Shown: positions 6,643 to 13,852, counted from the stretch's first letter. The stretch is DNA of 58,549 nt from Candidatus Buchananbacteria bacterium (GCA_030650095.1 JAUSEE010000031.1:1-58549), one strand, 5' to 3'. The notes: generated by a model from the letters alone, not told the origin. Numbers and translations are program-made.

Positions 6643-7689
6643 CTATTGATGCCTAATAACATCTTCATATATTTCTTTTAATTCTCTATTGTCAGGATCG
6701 AGTTGAGTAGCTTGTTTAAAATTTAAGATAGCCTTATCAACTTGATTAAGCACCCAATAATAATTTCCTAGCGCAACATAACACCAAGCATAATTCGGCT
6801 CGTATTCAACACAATATTTGGCATGACTTAATGATTTTTCATATTCTTTTTCAACTAGATAAACATATGAAAGTGAAGCATGGGCTGCGGCATATTTAGG
6901 AATTAAACTGATTGCTTTTAATTGGTATTCTTTTGTTTTTTCAATATTACCTTTTCGACTTTCTGAAATACCAAGCCAATAATACGCAATTGCCCTTTCC
7001 TCATCTGTTTCTGCATCTTCTAGCGCCTTTTTAGCGTTATCATTTTGTTGATTCCAATCTTGCTTTATCCAGCTAGCTCGAGTTTCATAGGCTCTTGCAT
7101 CAAAATTACTACTATTATTAATAAGCCCAACAACTACTACGGTCAAAATAATTAAAATAATTTCGACAACCTTTTCAATACCATTTTTATACTTATTAAT
7201 AAGAAATAAAAGAGGAATTACTAAAATAATCAGAACAATAACAGAAAAAAGCGCGTCATATCTTACAAAAGCATAATTAAAATCTGCCACATCCGACTCA
7301 TTAAATGTTTCTTGAAAAATTGGTCTTATCGGCATCGTTATAAGTATTGAAGAAAGGATAATAAATGAATCACTCAGAAGAGATAATTTAAAATTAGTTT
7401 TTTGATCTTTAGTTTTACTATTAAATCTGGCATAGACTAAACTAGACAAAAAAGAGAAACGATTTCTTAAAATGCTATAAATAAACACGAAAGAAAAAGT
7501 AACAGAAATTGATCTGACAAAAATTATTAGTAGCAGTTCCAAGTTGATATGTTTTTCAATAAAAATTAAACCTCTGGTGTATGACTCAAAAATTAACCCT
7601 ATAAATACCAACAAAAAAACTAATGTTGCTTCAATAATGAATCTACTAATATTTTCCTTATAAACTATACTTCTGTTTTTATTTTTCAT
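6643..7689 (-). CDS. multi-pass membrane protein with C-terminal TPR repeats
   Basis: About 5 hydrophobic segments, then TPR-like repeats (AYYWLG, AHASLS, CYVALG). Confidence 0.8.
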   Translation of the reverse strand: MKNKNRSIVYKENISRFIIEATLVFLLVFIGLIFESYTRGLIFIEKHINLELLLIIFVRSISVTFSFVFIYSILRNRFSFLSSLVYARFNSKTKDQKTNFKLSLLSDSFIILSSILITMPIRPIFQETFNESDVADFNYAFVRYDALFSVIVLIILVIPLLFLINKYKNGIEKVVEIILIILTVVVVGLINNSSNFDARAYETRASWIKQDWNQQNDNAKKALEDAETDEERAIAYYWLGISESRKGNIEKTKEYQLKAISLIPKYAAAHASLSYVYLVEKEYEKSLSHAKYCVEYEPNYAWCYVALGNYYWVLNQVDKAILNFKQATQLDPDNRELKEIYEDVIRHQ

Positions 7690-7765
7690 ATTTTTAATTA
7701 TATCACAATTTAAACCATAATATTTAATAATTAAAAAACACCCCTTTCGGGGTGATTTTTAATTG

Positions 7766-7836
7766 CAGGCGATGAGAGAATCGAACTCCCGCCATCGGTT
7801 TTGGAGACCGATGTTCTACCACTAAACTAATCGCCC
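7766..7836 (-). tRNA. tRNA-Trp(CCA)
   Basis: Cloverleaf GGGCGAT...ATCGCCT-G, anticodon loop CTCCAAA, GTTCGATT T-loop. Confidence 0.95.
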
Positions 7837-7877
7837 AAACAAGCAAACGGCCAACAAATTGCCAGCCGTTTTACCAG

Positions 7878-8033
7878 TTACTTAGTTTCTTTATGTAGGG
7901 TGTGTTTTTTGCAATGCTTACAATACTTTTTAAGCTGTAATCTCTCTTTTAAAAGCTTTTTGTTTTTGGAAGAGAAATAATTAACACGTTTACACTCCGT
8001 ACACTCGAATTTAATCATATTTTCCTGTGACAT
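7878..8033 (-). CDS. rpmG: 50S ribosomal protein L33 (Zn-binding type); not in the ORF track
   Basis: Manual translation [51 protein letters not shown]; lies next to tRNA-Trp as usual. Confidence 0.95.
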
Positions 8034-8063
8034 AGCTGTACTTAGATTAATAATTTATTGATC

Positions 8064-8140
8064 TGGAGCCACCCTTCGGATTCGAACCGAAGACCTGCTG
8101 TTTACAAGACAGCTGCTCTAGCCAGCTGAGCTAGGGTGGC
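8064..8140 (-). tRNA. tRNA-Thr(UGU)
   Basis: GCCACCC...GGGTGGC-T-CCA, anticodon loop CTTGTAA. Confidence 0.95.
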
Positions 8141-8256
8141 AAAATAAAATAAAAGCGTTTACGGGCACACTTTAGTGTGGTTATATTAGCATAAAACGCC
8201 CAAAAACACAAGTTCACGATTACACGGCATTTACTGGCATTAAAAAACAGAGATTT

Positions 8257-8469
8257 TTAATCTCTGTTTAAATTCAAAGCTAATATTTTAGCCATGGTAG
8301 CGCTGATGGCCGGGCGGTGTTTCTCTACGGTTCCTATAATTTCATTTAGATCATCAACGCTTGAGAGTTCCAAATCCAAGAAAATGCCCCAAGCCTCATT
8401 ATCGCTAAAATTGTCGGTGTCAATTATGACTAATTTAGCTCTTTCCAGTGAGTTTAATTCATCAGACAT
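8257..8469 (-). CDS. small hypothetical protein
   Basis: 70-aa ORF with GGAGG SD and an upstream TTGACT-17-TAATCT promoter. Confidence 0.65.
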   Translation of the reverse strand: MSDELNSLERAKLVIIDTDNFSDNEAWGIFLDLELSSVDDLNEIIGTVEKHRPAISATMAKILALNLNRD

Positions 8470-8612
8470 GTTTTGTCCTCCAAGTTGGATTTAATGTGCT
8501 GATAAGAGATTAACAGACAATAATCTATAAGTCAATAGTAACCAGAATAATATCTATATAACAAAAAGAGCGGCTTGTAGCCACTCTTTTTGCTGGTGAT
8601 AATTTCACCTCT

Positions 8613-8696
8613 TTATTTAATAAATCCGCCGGCCTGAAGCTCCCACAATTTCTTGTATATGCCGTTTTCTTTTTTAATCAATTGTTCATGATTGCC
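8613..8696 (-). pseudogene. C-terminal remnant of an ABC transporter ATP-binding protein
   Basis: Reads GNHEQLIKKENGIYKKLWELQAGGFIK*, the typical end of ABC exporter NBDs; 5' part is missing and the remnant abuts the repeat at 8699. Confidence 0.7.
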
Positions 8697-8698
8697 TT

Positions 8699-8785
8699 AC
8701 TCACTGCCAACCCGTTCGAATCTCAACTTGAACAACTCAATTAAATTAAAAGAACGGGAATAAATTCCCGTTCTTTTAATTTAAT
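8699..8785. repeat. truncated copy of the tRNA-Tyr-associated mini-element (conserved 23-mer plus perfect palindrome)
   Basis: 8699-8721 matches 11979-12001 at 22/23; perfect 22-bp-arm palindrome 8740-8785 ends at the GTGG junction. Confidence 0.75.
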
Positions 8786-8878
8786 GTGGAGGATAATGGA
8801 CATAGCTCGAACGCATTTTCGGGCCGTCGCCGACGGCACTGATTTCCCCCCAAAAAAAATTAAGCCCGAATTCTGAAC
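8786..8878. repeat. inverted repeat A, left copy (93 bp)
   Basis: Reverse complement of 10136-10228 apart from a few substitutions in an internal hairpin. Confidence 0.95.
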
Positions 8879-8930
8879 TTTGACAATTTCCAGTTTTTCA
8901 ATGATTTTTATTAAAAAATCATTTCAATAT

Positions 8931-10040
8931 TTATTGATTTGGTGGCAAATTATTTTTTTCTTCAGATTGCCATTGTACTTGGTGATCATATTGTCTAGTA
9001 GAATGACTATAACTAAGTCCTAGGTCAACGCCAGTTCTTAAGGTTATGACGATATAATTCAATTGTTCTGCAATCACCACATCATTAAGGTGTTTATCGT
9101 AAATATCCTTTAATATGCCATTAACGATTTCTTTGGATTGACTCTCATTGTCCAATATTTCACTTGGCACCCAACCCTCTATATATAAAATTTTTGTGTT
9201 GCCTACAGTACCAATTGTACTTTGGGTTTCAAAAGAAATGCCAATATTCTTTAAGCCATGACCAATCCGTAATTCATTATATAAAGAAATGTAATCTGAT
9301 TTAATAAATTTTTTCATTAGAATCCCAGCAAAAAAACTATTCATTAAAACGATGGCAATAATACCAATAATGGTAACAATGGTTACTGCGGTATATAAAA
9401 ATTTATTCTTTTTATCTTTTACATCATTATTAATCTTAGAAAAGTCCAATGTATGATTTTCTTGTAAAAAATATTGGTTAACAACATAAGATCCAGTAAT
9501 TATGTCAACTAATCCCCTTTTTTGATAATGGAATAATGGAAAAATAAAATAACCAATTAAAATAAATAGATCAATTATAGCTATCACATAACTAACTACA
9601 ATTTGATTCTGAATGACATTATTTAAAGAAATTGATATTCCAGAACTAAAGACAACAAAAACTAATGGGATAAATCTTATTAATGCAATTAGTGGATTAA
9701 CAAAATTACCATTTTTATTTACAACTGATATTTTAAATATCTTTTTACCTATTGTTTGGCCTTTATCTATAAAACTATCTGAAACTATGAAATAACCAGC
9801 CATTATTATCGCCGATATCCACCATAAATTTTCACCCAAACCATACAAAAATACCCCACCAAGCATTGCAATCAAAATTAATAGAATGGCTAAAGCAATT
9901 TCGTCGATTAAAAATGCAAAAAATCTATTGGGTAAGCTGGCAAATTGGGTTTTAGGAATTTTAATTGGTTTTTTACTCTTTCTCACTTCTTCATTTTTTT
10001 CATCTTCGTCAATGCTTTTTAAAAAATCGTTGTTTTCCAT
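8931..10040 (-). CDS. RDD-family membrane protein
   Basis: NRFFAFLID, GQTIGKKIFKISVV, RGLVDIITGSYVV RDD motifs. Confidence 0.85.
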   Translation of the reverse strand: MENNDFLKSIDEDEKNEEVRKSKKPIKIPKTQFASLPNRFFAFLIDEIALAILLILIAMLGGVFLYGLGENLWWISAIIMAGYFIVSDSFIDKGQTIGKKIFKISVVNKNGNFVNPLIALIRFIPLVFVVFSSGISISLNNVIQNQIVVSYVIAIIDLFILIGYFIFPLFHYQKRGLVDIITGSYVVNQYFLQENHTLDFSKINNDVKDKKNKFLYTAVTIVTIIGIIAIVLMNSFFAGILMKKFIKSDYISLYNELRIGHGLKNIGISFETQSTIGTVGNTKILYIEGWVPSEILDNESQSKEIVNGILKDIYDKHLNDVVIAEQLNYIVITLRTGVDLGLSYSHSTRQYDHQVQWQSEEKNNLPPNQ

Positions 10041-10135
10041 ATATTATTTTATTATTACAATATATTTAAAAATTTTCTTTTACCCAAAATGCGGTTCGAC
10101 CCGATATTTTTTCTGGCTCTTTGGCAGTCTTGGAT

Positions 10136-10323
10136 GTTCAGGATTCGGGCTTAATTTTTTTGGGGGGGAAATCAGCGCCACCTGTGGCGGCCCGAAAATG
10201 CGTTCGAGCTATGTCCATTATCCTCCACCAGTTCGGAAAAGTCAAATTTTGTTGGTCATTTTGGCCGCCTTCGGCGACCAAATCATACGGAATTTTAAAG
10301 TCCAAAAGCAATTAGCGGTTTTG
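10136..10323 (-). repeat. internal attP-like site: repeat A (10136-10228) fused to repeat B (10225-10323) through a shared CCAC/GTGG core
   Basis: 10225-10323 is the reverse complement of 11743-11841 (97/99); 10136-10228 is the reverse complement of 8786-8878. Confidence 0.85.
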
Positions 10324-10380
10324 AATTATGGTAAAAGAAAATTTTTAAATTCTAAATTATTAATCATTAATTAATCCCAA

Positions 10381-11901
10381 ATGAAATACTTTATTTACGC
10401 TCGCAAGAGTACAGAGGAAGAGGATAGACAAATATTATCTATCGAAGCTCAATTAGTTGAATTAAAAGAATTTGCCGCCAAAGAAAAACTGGAAATTGTC
10501 GCTTCCTTTCAGGAAGCCAAGACTGCCAAAGAGCCAGGCCGAATAATATTCGGCGAAATGCTAGCCAGAATCGAAAAGGGCGAAGCTAATGGCATTATTT
10601 CGTGGCACCCAGACAGATTGGCCAGAAATAGCGTTGACGGGGGCAAGATTATACACATGATCGACAAAGGAGTAATAAAAGCCCTCAAATTCCCAACCTT
10701 TTGGTTTGAGCCCACGCCACAAGGATTATTCATGCTTAGCATTGCTTTTGGCCAAAGCAAATACTATATCGATAACTTGCGCGAAAATGTTAAACGAGGT
10801 ATGAGGCAAAAGCTGAGAAATGGCGTCTGGCCTTCGCTTGCCCCGATCGGCTACTTGAATAATCCTAAAACCAGAGGCATTGATGTTGACCCTATTAAAG
10901 GGCCACTTGTTAGGCAGATATTTGAGCTCTATGCCTCTGGGGATTATTCATTAGGCGATTTAGAGAGATTCTGCGAAGAAAACAGTTTGGCAGGCTTTCA
11001 GGGCAAGCGAATCAGGACGAGCTACTTCTTCACGCTTTTGCAAAACATTTTCTATATTGGGCTCATGAAATTCGGAGGGGAAGTATTTGAGGGCACTCAC
11101 GAGCCGTTAATTTCTAAGAAACTTTTTGAAGATGTAAAAAATGTCATGAGGCAAAGAGGCAAGAAACGAGGCAAGATAAAAAAACATGATTTTCCATATA
11201 TTGGACTGCTAAAATGCTCGTGCGGGTGCGGTATCACGGCCGAGATGCAAAAGGGCCACCATTATTATCGCTGCACCAAGAAAAAACAAAATTGCCTCGA
11301 AAAACATTTTTTACGGGAAGAAGAACTGGAAAATCAAATCAAAACTTACTTTCAAAAAGTTTCAATTACAACCCAAGAAACCGAGAAAATATTGTTTGAG
11401 CTGGACAAAGAGGAAACGCAAGCAAAGGAAGAAGTAATCATTATTGTTCAAAATCTGAAAAGTGAGTTAGAAAATATAAACATAAACCTTGAGAAATTAC
11501 TCGACGTTTATTTAAGCGAGGCAATCACAACCGAGGAATACACCACCAGAAAACAAAAAATCCTAACTCGAAAGTTAGAACTTAATGAGAGAGTCCAAGA
11601 TTTTGAACAAAATGGTGTTTCTTGGGTCGAACCGGCTCGTGAGTTTATTTTATCGCTCAATCAAGCCAATATCCTAACACAGAGCACGGAGAAAAAAGAT
11701 CTGGCTGCATTTCTAAAAAATATCGGGTCGAACCGCATTTTACAAAACCGCCAATTGCTTTTGGACTTTAAAATTCCGTATGATTTGGTCGCCGAAGGCG
11801 GCCAAAATAACCAACAAAATTTGACTTTTCCGAACTGGTGGGCCGGGAGGGATTTCCGCCATAAATCGCCAACAGAAACTTGGCGATTTATTTTGTCCTA
11901 G
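10381..11901 (+). CDS. large serine recombinase (resolvase + recombinase + Zn-ribbon + coiled coil)
   Basis: YARKST catalytic Ser, DRLARN, PIGY, GTHEPLIS, LKCSCGC...YYRC; last ~19 codons come from tRNA-like/flanking DNA. Confidence 0.95.
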   Translation: MKYFIYARKSTEEEDRQILSIEAQLVELKEFAAKEKLEIVASFQEAKTAKEPGRIIFGEMLARIEKGEANGIISWHPDRLARNSVDGGKIIHMIDKGVIKALKFPTFWFEPTPQGLFMLSIAFGQSKYYIDNLRENVKRGMRQKLRNGVWPSLAPIGYLNNPKTRGIDVDPIKGPLVRQIFELYASGDYSLGDLERFCEENSLAGFQGKRIRTSYFFTLLQNIFYIGLMKFGGEVFEGTHEPLISKKLFEDVKNVMRQRGKKRGKIKKHDFPYIGLLKCSCGCGITAEMQKGHHYYRCTKKKQNCLEKHFLREEELENQIKTYFQKVSITTQETEKILFELDKEETQAKEEVIIIVQNLKSELENININLEKLLDVYLSEAITTEEYTTRKQKILTRKLELNERVQDFEQNGVSWVEPAREFILSLNQANILTQSTEKKDLAAFLKNIGSNRILQNRQLLLDFKIPYDLVAEGGQNNQQNLTFPNWWAGRDFRHKSPTETWRFILS

Positions 11902-12065
11902 GTTGGCGCCCAATGCTCGCACTTGCTCGCATTGTCCGATCATTCGTTTCGTCGTTTTCGCTTCCGCTAAAACTCCTCACTCACTGCCAACCTGTTCGAA
12001 TATCTCCAAACAAATCAAAAAACAGGACTATGTCCTATTTTTTGATTTGTGGGCCGGGAGGGATT
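11838..12065. mobile_element. 211-bp non-coding structured mini-element between 17-bp direct repeats of the tRNA-Tyr 3' end
   Basis: GTGGGCCGGGAGGGATT at 11838-11854 and 12049-12065; several internal hairpins. Confidence 0.7.
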
Positions 12066-12131
12066 CGAACCCCCGAAGGCGTAGCCAAGAGATTTACAGT
12101 CTCCCCCATTTGACCGCTTTGGTACCGACCC
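12050..12131 (-). tRNA. tRNA-Tyr(GUA)
   Basis: GGGTCGG...CCGGCCC-A, anticodon loop CTGTAAA, long variable arm. Confidence 0.95.
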
Positions 12132-12155
12132 TTAATAACTATTAACAATTAACAC

Positions 12156-12518
12156 TTAACTATTGACATTATTCAACTTTTTTATAAAACCACCTAATTG
12201 TTTAGCCACTAATTCTGATGATTTAAACAATTCAACATATAATATTTTATCCAAATAACCGATATTGTATATTAAATTCAAGCAAGCAACTAATTCATTA
12301 ACCGATCCTAAAGAGATTTGTAAATACCTGGCAAAATCTTTATCCGATTTTTTAGCTGAACCTTCTGCAATATTTAGAATAATAGATAGAGCTGATCTAG
12401 TAGTTTGATCTTTTAATGAATTGTTATTTTTGATTTTTTCAGATGCTATTAATACTTTTTTATACAAATCTTTAGCATCATTATAAACCTGAAACTGAAA
12501 AAATCTAAATGTGTCCAT
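12156..12518 (-). CDS. four-helix-bundle protein (23S rRNA IVP/bAvd-like family)
   Basis: LKDQTTRSALSIILNIAEGS...FARYLQISLGSVNEL family signature. Confidence 0.9.
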   Translation of the reverse strand: MDTFRFFQFQVYNDAKDLYKKVLIASEKIKNNNSLKDQTTRSALSIILNIAEGSAKKSDKDFARYLQISLGSVNELVACLNLIYNIGYLDKILYVELFKSSELVAKQLGGFIKKLNNVNS

Positions 12519-12562
12519 TCTGCTTGTTAATTGTTAAAAGTAAATTGTCAAATGTTAACTTG

Positions 12563-12619
12563 AGCCGTTGTCCAGGATTGAACTGGAGACCTTCCCGATT
12601 ACTATCGGGACGCTCTACC
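12563..12619 (-). pseudogene. degenerate tRNA-Thr fragment with the anticodon arm replaced by a TCCCGAT-N4-ATCGGGA hairpin
   Basis: GGTAGAGCG + hairpin + AGGTCTCCAGTTCAATCCTGGACAACGGCT; 5' acceptor strand absent. Confidence 0.75.
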
Positions 12620-12648
12620 TGTTTATTACAGATACATACAACTGCCTA

Positions 12649-12690
12649 AGCCGTTGTCCAGGATTGAACTGGAGACCTCATCCTTACCAT
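12649..12690 (-). pseudogene. 3' half of intronless tRNA-Thr(GGU) = left att junction
   Basis: ATGGTAAGGATGAGGTCTCCAGTTCAATCCTGGACAACGGCT; identity to tRNA begins exactly at the anticodon loop. Confidence 0.9.
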
Positions 12691-13183
12691 CAATTTAGTA
12701 TAGGATATTTACCCTGACAACAGCTAAATTTAAATAATAAATAGAAGGTTTATGACAATTTTATCGATCACCTGGATGACCTACTCCTTGCAGCTCAAAG
12801 AATACTTTTTCGAAATCTATTATTAATTAAGTAATGTAACTTTATCAAAAATTGTCTAAAAAATCAAGCATAGATATTATCTTTCAAAGTATGGGTATTC
12901 CTAAAAAAATATCTATTTTTTTGACCAAAGTATACTTATATGATTTTTATCGAACATAGCCAGTAGGAGGTAGCTTAAAATCGTTAGCTGACTAAGATGA
13001 CCTGTTAGTGGTTATCTAATAAAATTTCCTATCATAATATCCTTTCCTCTCTAAATAACTCAAAACATCATTGCTTCTGTTAATATCAATGACTCTCAAA
13101 TCACGCATATTATATTTGGAAAAAATAATTAATAAATAATTAACAATTGGTCTGCTTGTTAAGAGCATTATTTTAGAACTATA

Positions 13184-13852
13184 AGTGCCACCAGGTGGCA
13201 CTAGTGGCACTTTATTGCCAGAGAAATATGGTGATCCTGACTAGTAACCACACACAGAAAGGTTAGAGTTAAAACCTAATAATCCCCTTAACTTATCTTT
13301 GGTTAAATAATATTCTTTTAAAATATCAAAATTTAAATTATATAAAAAGTAAATACAATTAAATCGTTCATCTTCCCATAGTTTTTAAGATTTTTATCTG
13401 ACATATTATTGTTTATTTAAAACACCGATATAATCATTACCCCAATCATCAAAAACAGTAGACGCTGAAATCCCAGAAATGATATGTCAATAAAAATAGT
13501 TGCGCATTGGCGATAACTTTTTCAAGTCACCCTACACAATTTCAAACATAAACCGTGCCACCCAAATAATAATAGTTTGGGTTGTTATAATTATTTCTTC
13601 TTTATATCAAAAATCGGCGAAAAATGCCAGTAGGCTAACCAATCAGCGAACCGCACCTTAATGAATAGAAAAGCCCTTTTTATTGGGGAAATCTATTTCA
13701 GGAAACAAAAACAGGCACTAAAATACCTGTCTTGTCCAGTCAGCTCCGCGCTATAAACGTCTATATTTAGGTGTTTTTAATTTTATATCTTTGCCACCTG
13801 GTGGCAAACATAATAACTTTTCTAACTATAGGGTGTTCACCTGGTGAATACC
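13184..13852. promoter_or_regulatory. cluster of CACC-W-GGTG palindromes (putative protein-binding sites)
   Basis: AGTGCCACC-A-GGTGGCACT 13184-13202, TTTGCCACC-T-GGTGGCAAA 13790-13808, GGTGTTCACC-T-GGTGAATACC 13832-13852; a fourth copy at 27183-27205. Confidence 0.5.

Follow-up and report, generated by a model that had tools for sequence, protein, structure and literature searches.

Why does a two-gene integrative element carry, between its cargo and its recombinase, an inverted block made of its own joined ends? The question is raised by a 3.06-kb element at positions 8786-11841 of a 58,549-nucleotide (nt) stretch of DNA from a “Candidatus Buchananbacteria” bacterium (GCA_030650095.1 JAUSEE010000031.1:1-58549), the whole of which is called the window here. 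Serine integrases are prized as genome-engineering tools because they need only two short sites, and their direction and the control of their expression are understood for only a few phage enzymes. Judged by comparison with its relatives, the element is one integrated copy of a large family whose members a large serine recombinase (LSR) places at tRNA genes, at their discriminator/CCA end, and the block between cargo and recombinase is a complete inverted attachment site (attP*). The explanation favored as a whole, which we consider moderately probable, is an LSR element of tRNA gene ends with a live attP*, a promoter assembled across it, and complementary copies of recombinase gene segments.

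Architecture of the element

Two pairs of inverted repeats organize the element. The first (8786-8878 and 10136-10228; 93 nt, 91% identity; blastn E 4e-31) flanks the cargo gene, and the second (10225-10323 and 11743-11841; 99 nt, 98%; blastn E 1.6e-42) flanks the recombinase gene; a longer version of the second pair covers 10225-10330 and 11736-11841 (106 nt at 95%). An earlier sequence-only reading of this DNA had reported both pairs, and blastn places them exactly where that reading put them. It was equally right that the inner copies overlap at the core found at both outer junctions (CCAC at 10225-10228; GTGG at 8786-8789 and 11838-11841), that the right outer copy is the coding 3' end of the recombinase gene (10381-11901, plus strand; ...TFPNWWAGRDFRHKSPTETWRFILS), and that the fused inner site continues this reading in frame. 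The continuation belongs to a minus-strand open reading frame (ORF) at 10138-10311, of 57 amino acids (aa) with a TTG start codon and no Pfam match, which reads ...TFPNWWRIMDIARTHFRAATGGADFPPKKIKPES.

Read in reverse, 10136-10330 consists of the right end of the element (inverted P arm, 10225-10330), the core, and the left end (inverted P' arm, 10136-10228). The repeats thereby identify this minus-strand block as a complete inverted attP. The outer junctions are attL, where the core and P' arm (8786-8878, plus strand) were delimited by the repeat and by junction comparison, and attR, where the P arm (11736-11841) ends in the core. attP* splits the element into a cargo arc with inverted P' arms and a recombinase arc with inverted P arms, and because each arc is bounded by identical inverted arms, either could be inverted with the make-up of attL, attP*, and attR kept. 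On the host side, attR continues as a displaced 17-nt direct copy (11838-11854, plus strand) of the tRNA-Tyr 3' end (12049-12065), and the intact tRNA-Tyr(GTA) gene (12049-12131, minus strand) follows at a distance of 211 nt. At attL, the host-side flank (B arm; 8740-8785) is a perfect 22+22-nt palindrome and is probably the displaced tRNA terminator.

The cargo gene (8931-10040, minus strand) encodes an RDD-family membrane protein of 369 aa (PF06271, E 4e-17). Around attP* there are four further short perfect inverted repeats, absent from the first account, each of which copies a piece of the recombinase gene or its leader. A' (8882-8899) is a perfect inverted copy of recombinase codons 35 to 40 (10483-10500) and abuts the P' arm, a layout that matches that in relatives. 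S1 (10064-10084), which lies 24 nt upstream of the cargo start codon, is an inverted copy (92% paired across the aligned family sequences) of the leader segment S1' (10330-10350), 30 nt upstream of the recombinase ATG. S2 (10086-10112) and S3 (10113-10133) are perfect inverted copies of recombinase nt +1334 to +1360 (S2', 11715-11741) and +136 to +156 (S3', 10517-10537), respectively. At the left ends of six relatives (L014, L040, L053, L066, L078, and L081), A' is split by a 30- to 65-nt insert, which in most of the six is self-complementary.

By these features, the window copy is a standard, intact-looking member of its family. Its P' pair is 91% identical, versus 98 to 100% in most relatives, and a later module insertion separates the flank from the tRNA gene; because of these two features, an older insertion is suggested. 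An Rfam scan of 7500-13500 at E values up to 1 returned three tRNAs and chance-level matches only.

Family, target, and conservation of the inner site

With one protein as the query, species-representative genomes yielded 205 relatives and metagenome contigs 321; the best 80 of each, 160 loci in all, were analyzed. The relatives come mostly from metagenome-assembled genomes of Patescibacteria, others being labelled Omnitrophota, Nitrospira, Thermodesulfovibrio, Dehalococcoidales, and Kiritimatiellia, and one is from an isolate genome (L078, Schleiferia thermophila DSM 21410). A tRNA gene on the opposite strand starts at +1420 to +1490 in 109 of 135 loci, and thirteen tRNA isotypes are targeted (Leu 31, Ser 19, Arg 17, and others).

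Junctions in relatives have a constant grammar: attR is P arm, core, and tRNA 3' end; the inner site is P arm, core, and P' arm; and attL is an unrelated flank, core, and P' arm. This bears out the proposal that attP lies inside the 3' end of the recombinase gene. The core is the complement of the discriminator plus CCA, and the host flank on the far side is not conserved; in the window and related loci, attL, attR, and inner attP share 4 to 6 nt only, at the junction. The P' arm of the family carries GTTCGAAC (in the window, GCTCGAAC), at a distance from the core that exceeds that of the T-loop TCGAAC in the tRNA by 4 to 5 bp.

Conservation was scored in the 115 loci that have their full 3' end and no less than 350 nt of upstream sequence. 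The inner P arm (S4) is kept in 107, S2 in 101, and S1 in 81 of these; S3 was found in 73 of the 115 by BLAST and in 111 of 116 distinct loci by an ungapped search. Only L066, L074, and L168 lack all of S1 to S4. Of the 78 loci that extend 2.5 kb or more upstream, 66 have the pair formed by the left end and the inner P' arm (L/X). Given this conservation, we take the inner attP to be a functional, selected part of the element and not a relic.

The source genome (1.16 Mb, 62 contigs) holds a second copy, on contig C33 at a tRNA-Ser(GGA) gene (C33:7911-11157, L002). This paralogue has 70% nt identity to the window copy, with every repeat in the same place and different in sequence; its left end (7911-8011) is 100% identical to its own inner copy, a 101-nt P' pair. 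Its cargo consists of an XRE-type protein of 70 aa and a protein of at least 304 aa. Across the family, the borders are constant and the cargo between them varies widely (80 distinct arcs, 617 to 5604 nt), and the elements appear to be one of the main means by which Patescibacteria exchange single genes as cargo. A literature search of full texts, supplements aside, returned no description of this layout. The design is, by comparison of loci, conserved and common to hundreds of elements in ultra-small bacteria and, apparently, undescribed.

The recombinase and its exchangeable tail

Domain matches and predicted structure identify the 506-aa recombinase as an LSR. It has a resolvase-type catalytic domain (PF00239, E 1.7e-20, residues 4 to 150), a Recombinase domain (PF07508, E 1.1e-10), and a zinc ribbon (PF13408, E 2.3e-6); the nucleophile S10 in YARKS and cysteines C279, C281, C298, and C305 are invariant in 62 family sequences. 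An AlphaFold2 model from 62 family members (mean predicted local distance difference test [pLDDT] score of 76.8) has the expected LSR domains, including a predicted coiled coil of two long helices (331-378 and 384-411; pLDDT, 78 to 90). In NCBIfam, the best match was XisF, at 81.5 bits versus a cut-off of 375, and every match was below its cut-off. Phage records gave matches of <30% identity only, and no relative was found in the viral_contigs collection. No directionality factor gene was evident in the two-gene element, which consists of the RDD and recombinase genes.

Because the P arm is the last ∼100 nt of the coding sequence, integration replaces the last 20 to 30 codons, and the replacement codons of the integrated form are read from tRNA antisense. 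In the window, the claim that tRNA-derived codons continue the tail holds for 13 nt after the core, the rest being read from a ∼155-nt module that lies outside the element. The attP-form tail (median, 31 aa; 79 distinct sites) has the consensus (S/C/R)IL(K/E)(I/V)VRT(H/F)FAA.GG, which fits the expectation that homologous recombinases end in RIMDIARTHF-like tails; in the integrated form, the median length is 29 aa and ..RDSNP.. is a frequent reading.

A double inversion switch that swaps this C-terminal tail had been proposed, which the data do not support as stated. Both tail motifs are the TCGAAC motif read in different frames and are therefore not evidence of protein-level selection, and the exchanged part falls within residues 464 to 506, where pLDDT is <50, i.e., in a region predicted to be disordered. 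The tail peptide was rejected as evidence of protein function, as its conserved VRT is a codon reading of the DNA motif GTTCGAAC, and so was the tail stretch AACGGE, a reading of a GC hairpin.

Orientation states and use of the inner site

More than 95% of informative loci share the orientation of the window. A same-strand tRNA gene lies upstream in 2 of 160 loci, direct copies of S3'/S2' occur in 2 of 160, and alternative states were found in 4 of 160 (L022, L082, L148, and L168). In L082 the cargo arc is flipped, giving the order flank, core, L, S3', S2', S1', cargo (plus strand), A, X, core, S4, and recombinase; S3', S2', and S1' are direct copies, and a cargo ORF of 260 aa lies on the recombinase strand. 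L168 combines the same cargo orientation with a deletion between two direct A copies, which takes out the inner site and the first 28 recombinase codons. In L148, the inverted P arm that precedes the recombinase gene is fused, in an exact joint, to a tRNA-Leu sequence (...CACCA). At its other end, the gene continues past the core into a P' arm, and the inverted partner of this arm extends to the end of the contig. In L022, the recombinase arc lies between two inverted tRNA-Ala sequences. Because the precise tRNA-to-inner-arm joints of L148 and L022 cannot arise by homology, the inner site has been used as an attP; on this comparison of assembled loci, attP* is shown to be a live site.

Occupied tRNA ends also stay targets, because recombinase 3' ends are found joined to the P' arms of further elements. 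In these tandem arrays (L040, L069, L074, L140, L158, and L161), the recombinase 3' end continues through the core into the P'-like arm of another, often different, element, and the second element sits between the first and the tRNA gene.

The spare attP had been thought able to flip the cargo or the recombinase itself. The rare isomers L082, L148, and L022 support this in part, but one orientation dominates and the arcs are not freely flipping. That only four of 160 loci are in another state speaks against a balanced switch, and from these assemblies inversion appears occasional rather than routine; both orientations are not common between loci, as they would be in a phase-variable invertible segment of the Hin/Gin type. 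Contigs break within 500 nt upstream of the gene in 34 of 160 loci and within 200 nt after it in 41 of 160. Logan contigs of sequencing run X1 on 8600-12100 likewise break at repeat borders and resolve neither the orientation nor a circle junction.

A candidate promoter across the inner core

A sigma-70-like promoter match, TTGACT and GATAAT separated by 17 nt (10 of 12 consensus positions), spans the attP* core on the minus strand (10245-10217) and points into the cargo; as a candidate, it is new here. Its −35 hexamer lies in the P arm, the core within the spacer, and the −10 hexamer in the P' arm. Such a core-spanning pair scores at least 9 of 12 in 50, and at least 8 in 87, of 108 distinct attP* sites, and 60 of the 108 have one register in common (−35 at −21, 17-nt spacer). 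The −35 hexamers are TTGACT, TTGCAA, or TTGACA, and the common −10 hexamers (TATTCT, TATATT, and GATAAT) all share an A at their second position and a T at their sixth. Pairs that face the other way score at best 6 to 7 in 101 sites and 8 in 7 sites, and never higher.

The strand of the cargo agrees with this direction: among 80 distinct cargo arcs, 68 have the ORF adjoining attP* pointing away from it, and the strand that points away holds 89% of cargo coding bases. The predicted joint promoter is split at attL and attR and is whole only at the inner site, facing the cargo. No plus-strand promoter for the recombinase reached the scan threshold within 10136-10380.

Complementary gene copies and internal helices

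Near the 5' end of the recombinase gene, an ultra-conserved nucleotide stretch (10483-10537, plus strand) is made up of A (10483-10500), a 17-nt hairpin called g (10501-10517, codons 41 to 46), and S3'; at the 3' end, S2' is followed by the attR P arm and core (together, 11715-11841). Between the two regions, a long-range helix wholly inside the ORF pairs 10555-10572 with 11697-11712 (+175 to +192 with +1316 to +1331), with a mean duplex energy of −22.2 versus −12.9 kcal/mol in control windows.

Covariation was assessed for 187 named pairs in an alignment of 94 sequences from −340 to +1480. Pairing was found in 94.3% of cells, versus 78.6% in shuffles and 39 to 52% with partners slid; both sides had changed at 134 pairs, versus 95.9 in shuffles; and the covariation score of 0.376, against 0.110, was matched by none of 500 shuffles. 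S1, S2, S3, and the long P arm are 92 to 96.5% paired, hairpin g is 97% paired (with G:C 59, C:G 30, and T:A 19 at one of its pairs), and the long-range helix is 91% paired. S3 matches the synonymous variant of its own gene at 186 of the 235 positions that vary. Synonymous changes are suppressed at codons 26 to 60 and 441 to 485 (top-codon share, 0.79 to 0.95, versus a baseline of ∼0.55 to 0.65) and likewise at codons 241 to 255 and 321 to 335 (window, ∼11101-11145 and ∼11341-11385). Separately, 11095-11122 and 11617-11644 are complementary in part, a hint that the gene may contain more helices. In run X1, the bin 10472-10588 has a word depth of 2107, versus ∼10 in its flanks, and is therefore common to many elements of that community.

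Compensatory changes in inverted gene copies, in a coding-region hairpin, and in a long-range helix are, at the level of aligned sequences, also new here; these ghost segments and the helices within the gene suggest a further layer, of control or of conversion.

Proposed role of the inner site

In the explanation favored above, the orientation seen in the window is the resting state of >95% of loci. Integration would split the joint promoter at attL and attR, and attP* would keep it permanently assembled in most clades. The main everyday job of attP* would then most likely be transcription of the cargo from a leader composed of P', S3', S2', and S1', and attP* would also give the excised circle a second usable attP. 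A', S1, S2, S3, the hairpin, and the long-range helix may be held complementary by selection or conversion; they would tie the cargo leader to the recombinase mRNA or gene and most likely keep recombinase expression low. If the inner site does keep a joint promoter permanently assembled, it illustrates the way in which cargo is expressed from a minimal element of two genes in genomes of ∼1 Mb.

Several points weigh against this explanation. First, equally usable attP copies predict that about half of insertions should be in the other configuration, which is seen in one or two among >100 loci; because alternative insertions are so rare, an added assumption is needed, i.e., that other states are unstable. 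Second, the promoter is a consensus match only, and the 3.6-kb region holds 17 such matches versus 12.1 expected; the TTGAC-type motif may simply be a binding motif of the recombinase, and arms of 100 nt that match the element ends are not needed for a promoter. Third, a tRNA-Ser clade, including the C33 paralogue, keeps attP* without a good promoter in that register, and because of this clade the promoter cannot be the universal reason for attP*. Fourth, mismatch types in the repeat arms show no consistent RNA strand and no consistent G:U excess on either strand, and because they favor no strand, DNA-level conversion could explain the covariation without an RNA role. Finally, the 160 loci include at least six records common to both collections, so that locus counts are not fully independent.

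Alternative explanations

An RNA device is possible though unlikely. S1, S2, S3, and the inverted attP would pair with the recombinase leader, codons 46 to 52, and the 3' end, so that read-through or circle-specific transcripts would be folded shut or cut and the recombinase kept off; fold-back inhibition of this kind is known in IS10. Such a device would account for compensatory changes in all six helices, two of which (hairpin g and the long-range helix) are wholly inside the ORF, and for the suppressed synonymous variation at codons 26 to 60 and 441 to 485. The long-range helix nests properly with S2:S2' and S3:S3', and the three would make up a three-way junction; hairpin g has 10 U:G cells versus 3 C:A cells on the plus strand. 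However, S1:S1' and S4:S4' cross other helices, so not all can form at once; among mismatches in S2 and the long arms, G:U is not in excess on the plus strand; no known promoter lies upstream of S1; and the region has no Rfam family match.

A second attP together with the targetable tRNA half-site in attR might instead let the enzyme flip its own gene without a directionality factor, an idea that we hold to be clearly unlikely. Facing the tRNA gene, the recombinase gene would be read against tRNA transcription, have a foreign tail, and be off, which would be the resting state that >95% of loci show; turned over, it would be read through from the tRNA gene, regain its P'-coded end, and be on. 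The co-varying ghost segments would serve as an RNA or DNA latch, and the joint promoter would couple cargo expression to the orientation of the arc. If true, this would be a self-contained, factor-free switch of directionality and expression for a serine integrase.

The double inversion switch first proposed for this locus, in which the recombinase would invert either its own arc or the cargo arc, alternate thereby between the tRNA-coded and P'-coded tails, and change its activity or directionality without excision, seems to us quite improbable. The architecture permits it, as identical inverted arms bound each arc and flipping restores the same sites; isomers exist (L082, L148, and L022), occupied tRNA sites stay targetable in the tandem arrays, and many contigs break at repeats. 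Yet such breaks are equally expected from repeats common to many elements, nearly all informative loci are in one orientation, and the swapped residues lie within the tail of low pLDDT, whose conservation tracks the DNA motif. Moreover, canonical serine integrases are not known to recombine attP with attR or attL.

We give little credence to a role of the ghost pieces (S1', A, S3', and S2') and attP* as homology borders for arc exchange and end repair, with exchange by homologous recombination or gene conversion and complementarity as a by-product of conversion rather than of pairing. Cargo does vary between constant borders, and these borders are copied from where the gene is most conserved in nucleotides; L168 has lost the DNA between direct A copies, and in L082, L088, and L037, S4/S4' is only 76 to 85% identical but L/X is 96 to 100% identical, so that these loci look like chimeras. 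On the other hand, segments of 20 nt are at or below the usual length for RecA-dependent exchange, S3 follows the synonymous variants of its own gene and not a family-wide sequence, and hairpin g and the long-range helix are left unexplained.

The idea that attP* is the relic of a second, deleted element, or a misassembly, can be dismissed as already refuted by the comparative data: the only point in its favor is that the inner block reads like a shortened inverted copy of the recombinase gene plus joined ends, but the same layout with co-varying sequence recurs in the same-genome paralogue and in >100 loci from independent assemblies, including the isolate L078, contigs of run X1 from an independent assembly cover both arcs and the attL junction, and retention of the inner P arm across the family contradicts the absence from homologues by which the sequence-only reading would have recognized a relic.

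Comparison with known systems

The element shares with the large serine integrases of phages and integrative elements, e.g., phiC31, Bxb1, A118/LI, and SPbeta SprA, the same set of Resolvase, Recombinase, and Zn-ribbon domains with a predicted coiled coil, and the same reaction, in which attP and attB give attL and attR with a shared core of only 4 to 6 nt. The P' motif, which lies 4 to 5 bp further out than the tRNA half-site motif, fits the attP/attB spacing rule of serine integrases. Unlike known large serine integrases, the element targets the 3' ends of many tRNAs with no conserved second half-site, has its attP inside a gene, keeps a second inverted attP, and has no evident directionality factor gene. 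A serine integrase alone is unidirectional, and excision needs a directionality factor.

Joint promoters have precedents. Lyras and Rood (2000) reportedly dealt with that of Tn4451/Tn4453. Promoters assembled only at joined ends are described for Tn4451/Tn4453 (with the LSR TnpX) and for the integrative and conjugative elements (ICEs) ICEclc (Pcirc) and ICEKp1 (P3'end), and in Tn4451 and the ICEs the joint promoter drives the recombinase gene in the circle (PMC13023037). In contrast, the joint promoter predicted here points away from the recombinase 3' end, and in the integrated element an inverted copy of the joint stays in place and faces the cargo.

Like the yeast 2-micron plasmid (FLP/FRT), the circular form would consist of two arcs with inverted sites and two isomers, but the recombinase is a serine and not a tyrosine enzyme, the isomers are far from equal, and the element has no replication genes. 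In Hin/Gin invertible segments, too, inverted sites enclose the gene of a serine recombinase; the enzyme here, however, has 506 aa with LSR domains and is not a small invertase with a C-terminal helix-turn-helix, its sites are full attP sites with 100-nt arms, one orientation dominates, and the element is mobile. SSV1-type integrases and integration-dependent immunity in mycobacteriophages likewise have attP inside a gene, so that integration changes the product, but those involve tyrosine integrases or an attP in a repressor gene, whereas here a tail predicted to be disordered is exchanged. The family is widespread, and it is unusual in having 13 tRNA isotypes as targets, a site inside its own gene, a second, inverted and usable site, and short co-varying gene copies.

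Neighboring features

Between the element and the intact tRNA-Tyr gene lies the ∼155-nt module mentioned above with its hairpin (11855-12048, plus strand; hairpin, 12010-12048). Modules of this kind, of 120 to 155 nt, occur just 3' of at least eight different tRNA genes of this genome; each is followed by a hairpin and bounded on its far side by a 17- to 19-nt copy of the 3' end of that tRNA. Sites are found in the window (11855-12048 and 8695-8727) and at C11:75887-76214, C33:50929-51399, C40:12597-12712, C49:22335-22478, and C34:3919-4040, with modules in tandem at tRNA-Gln; the module has no Rfam match. In its sequence, it looks like a miniature insertion that targets tRNA ends with a long target duplication.

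Beyond the tRNA gene, two identical 30-nt direct repeats (12563-12592 and 12649-12678) resemble a reverse-complemented T-arm/acceptor end of a tRNA; ARAGORN called no tRNA at 12563-12678. These repeats adjoin a gene for a 23S rRNA-intervening-sequence protein (12156-12518, minus strand). On the other side of the element, the minus strand of 8600-8700 holds a remnant that, by eye only, reads like the C terminus of an ABC-transporter ATPase (…GNHEQLIKKENGIYKKLWELQAGGFIK*), cut off at the module remnant.

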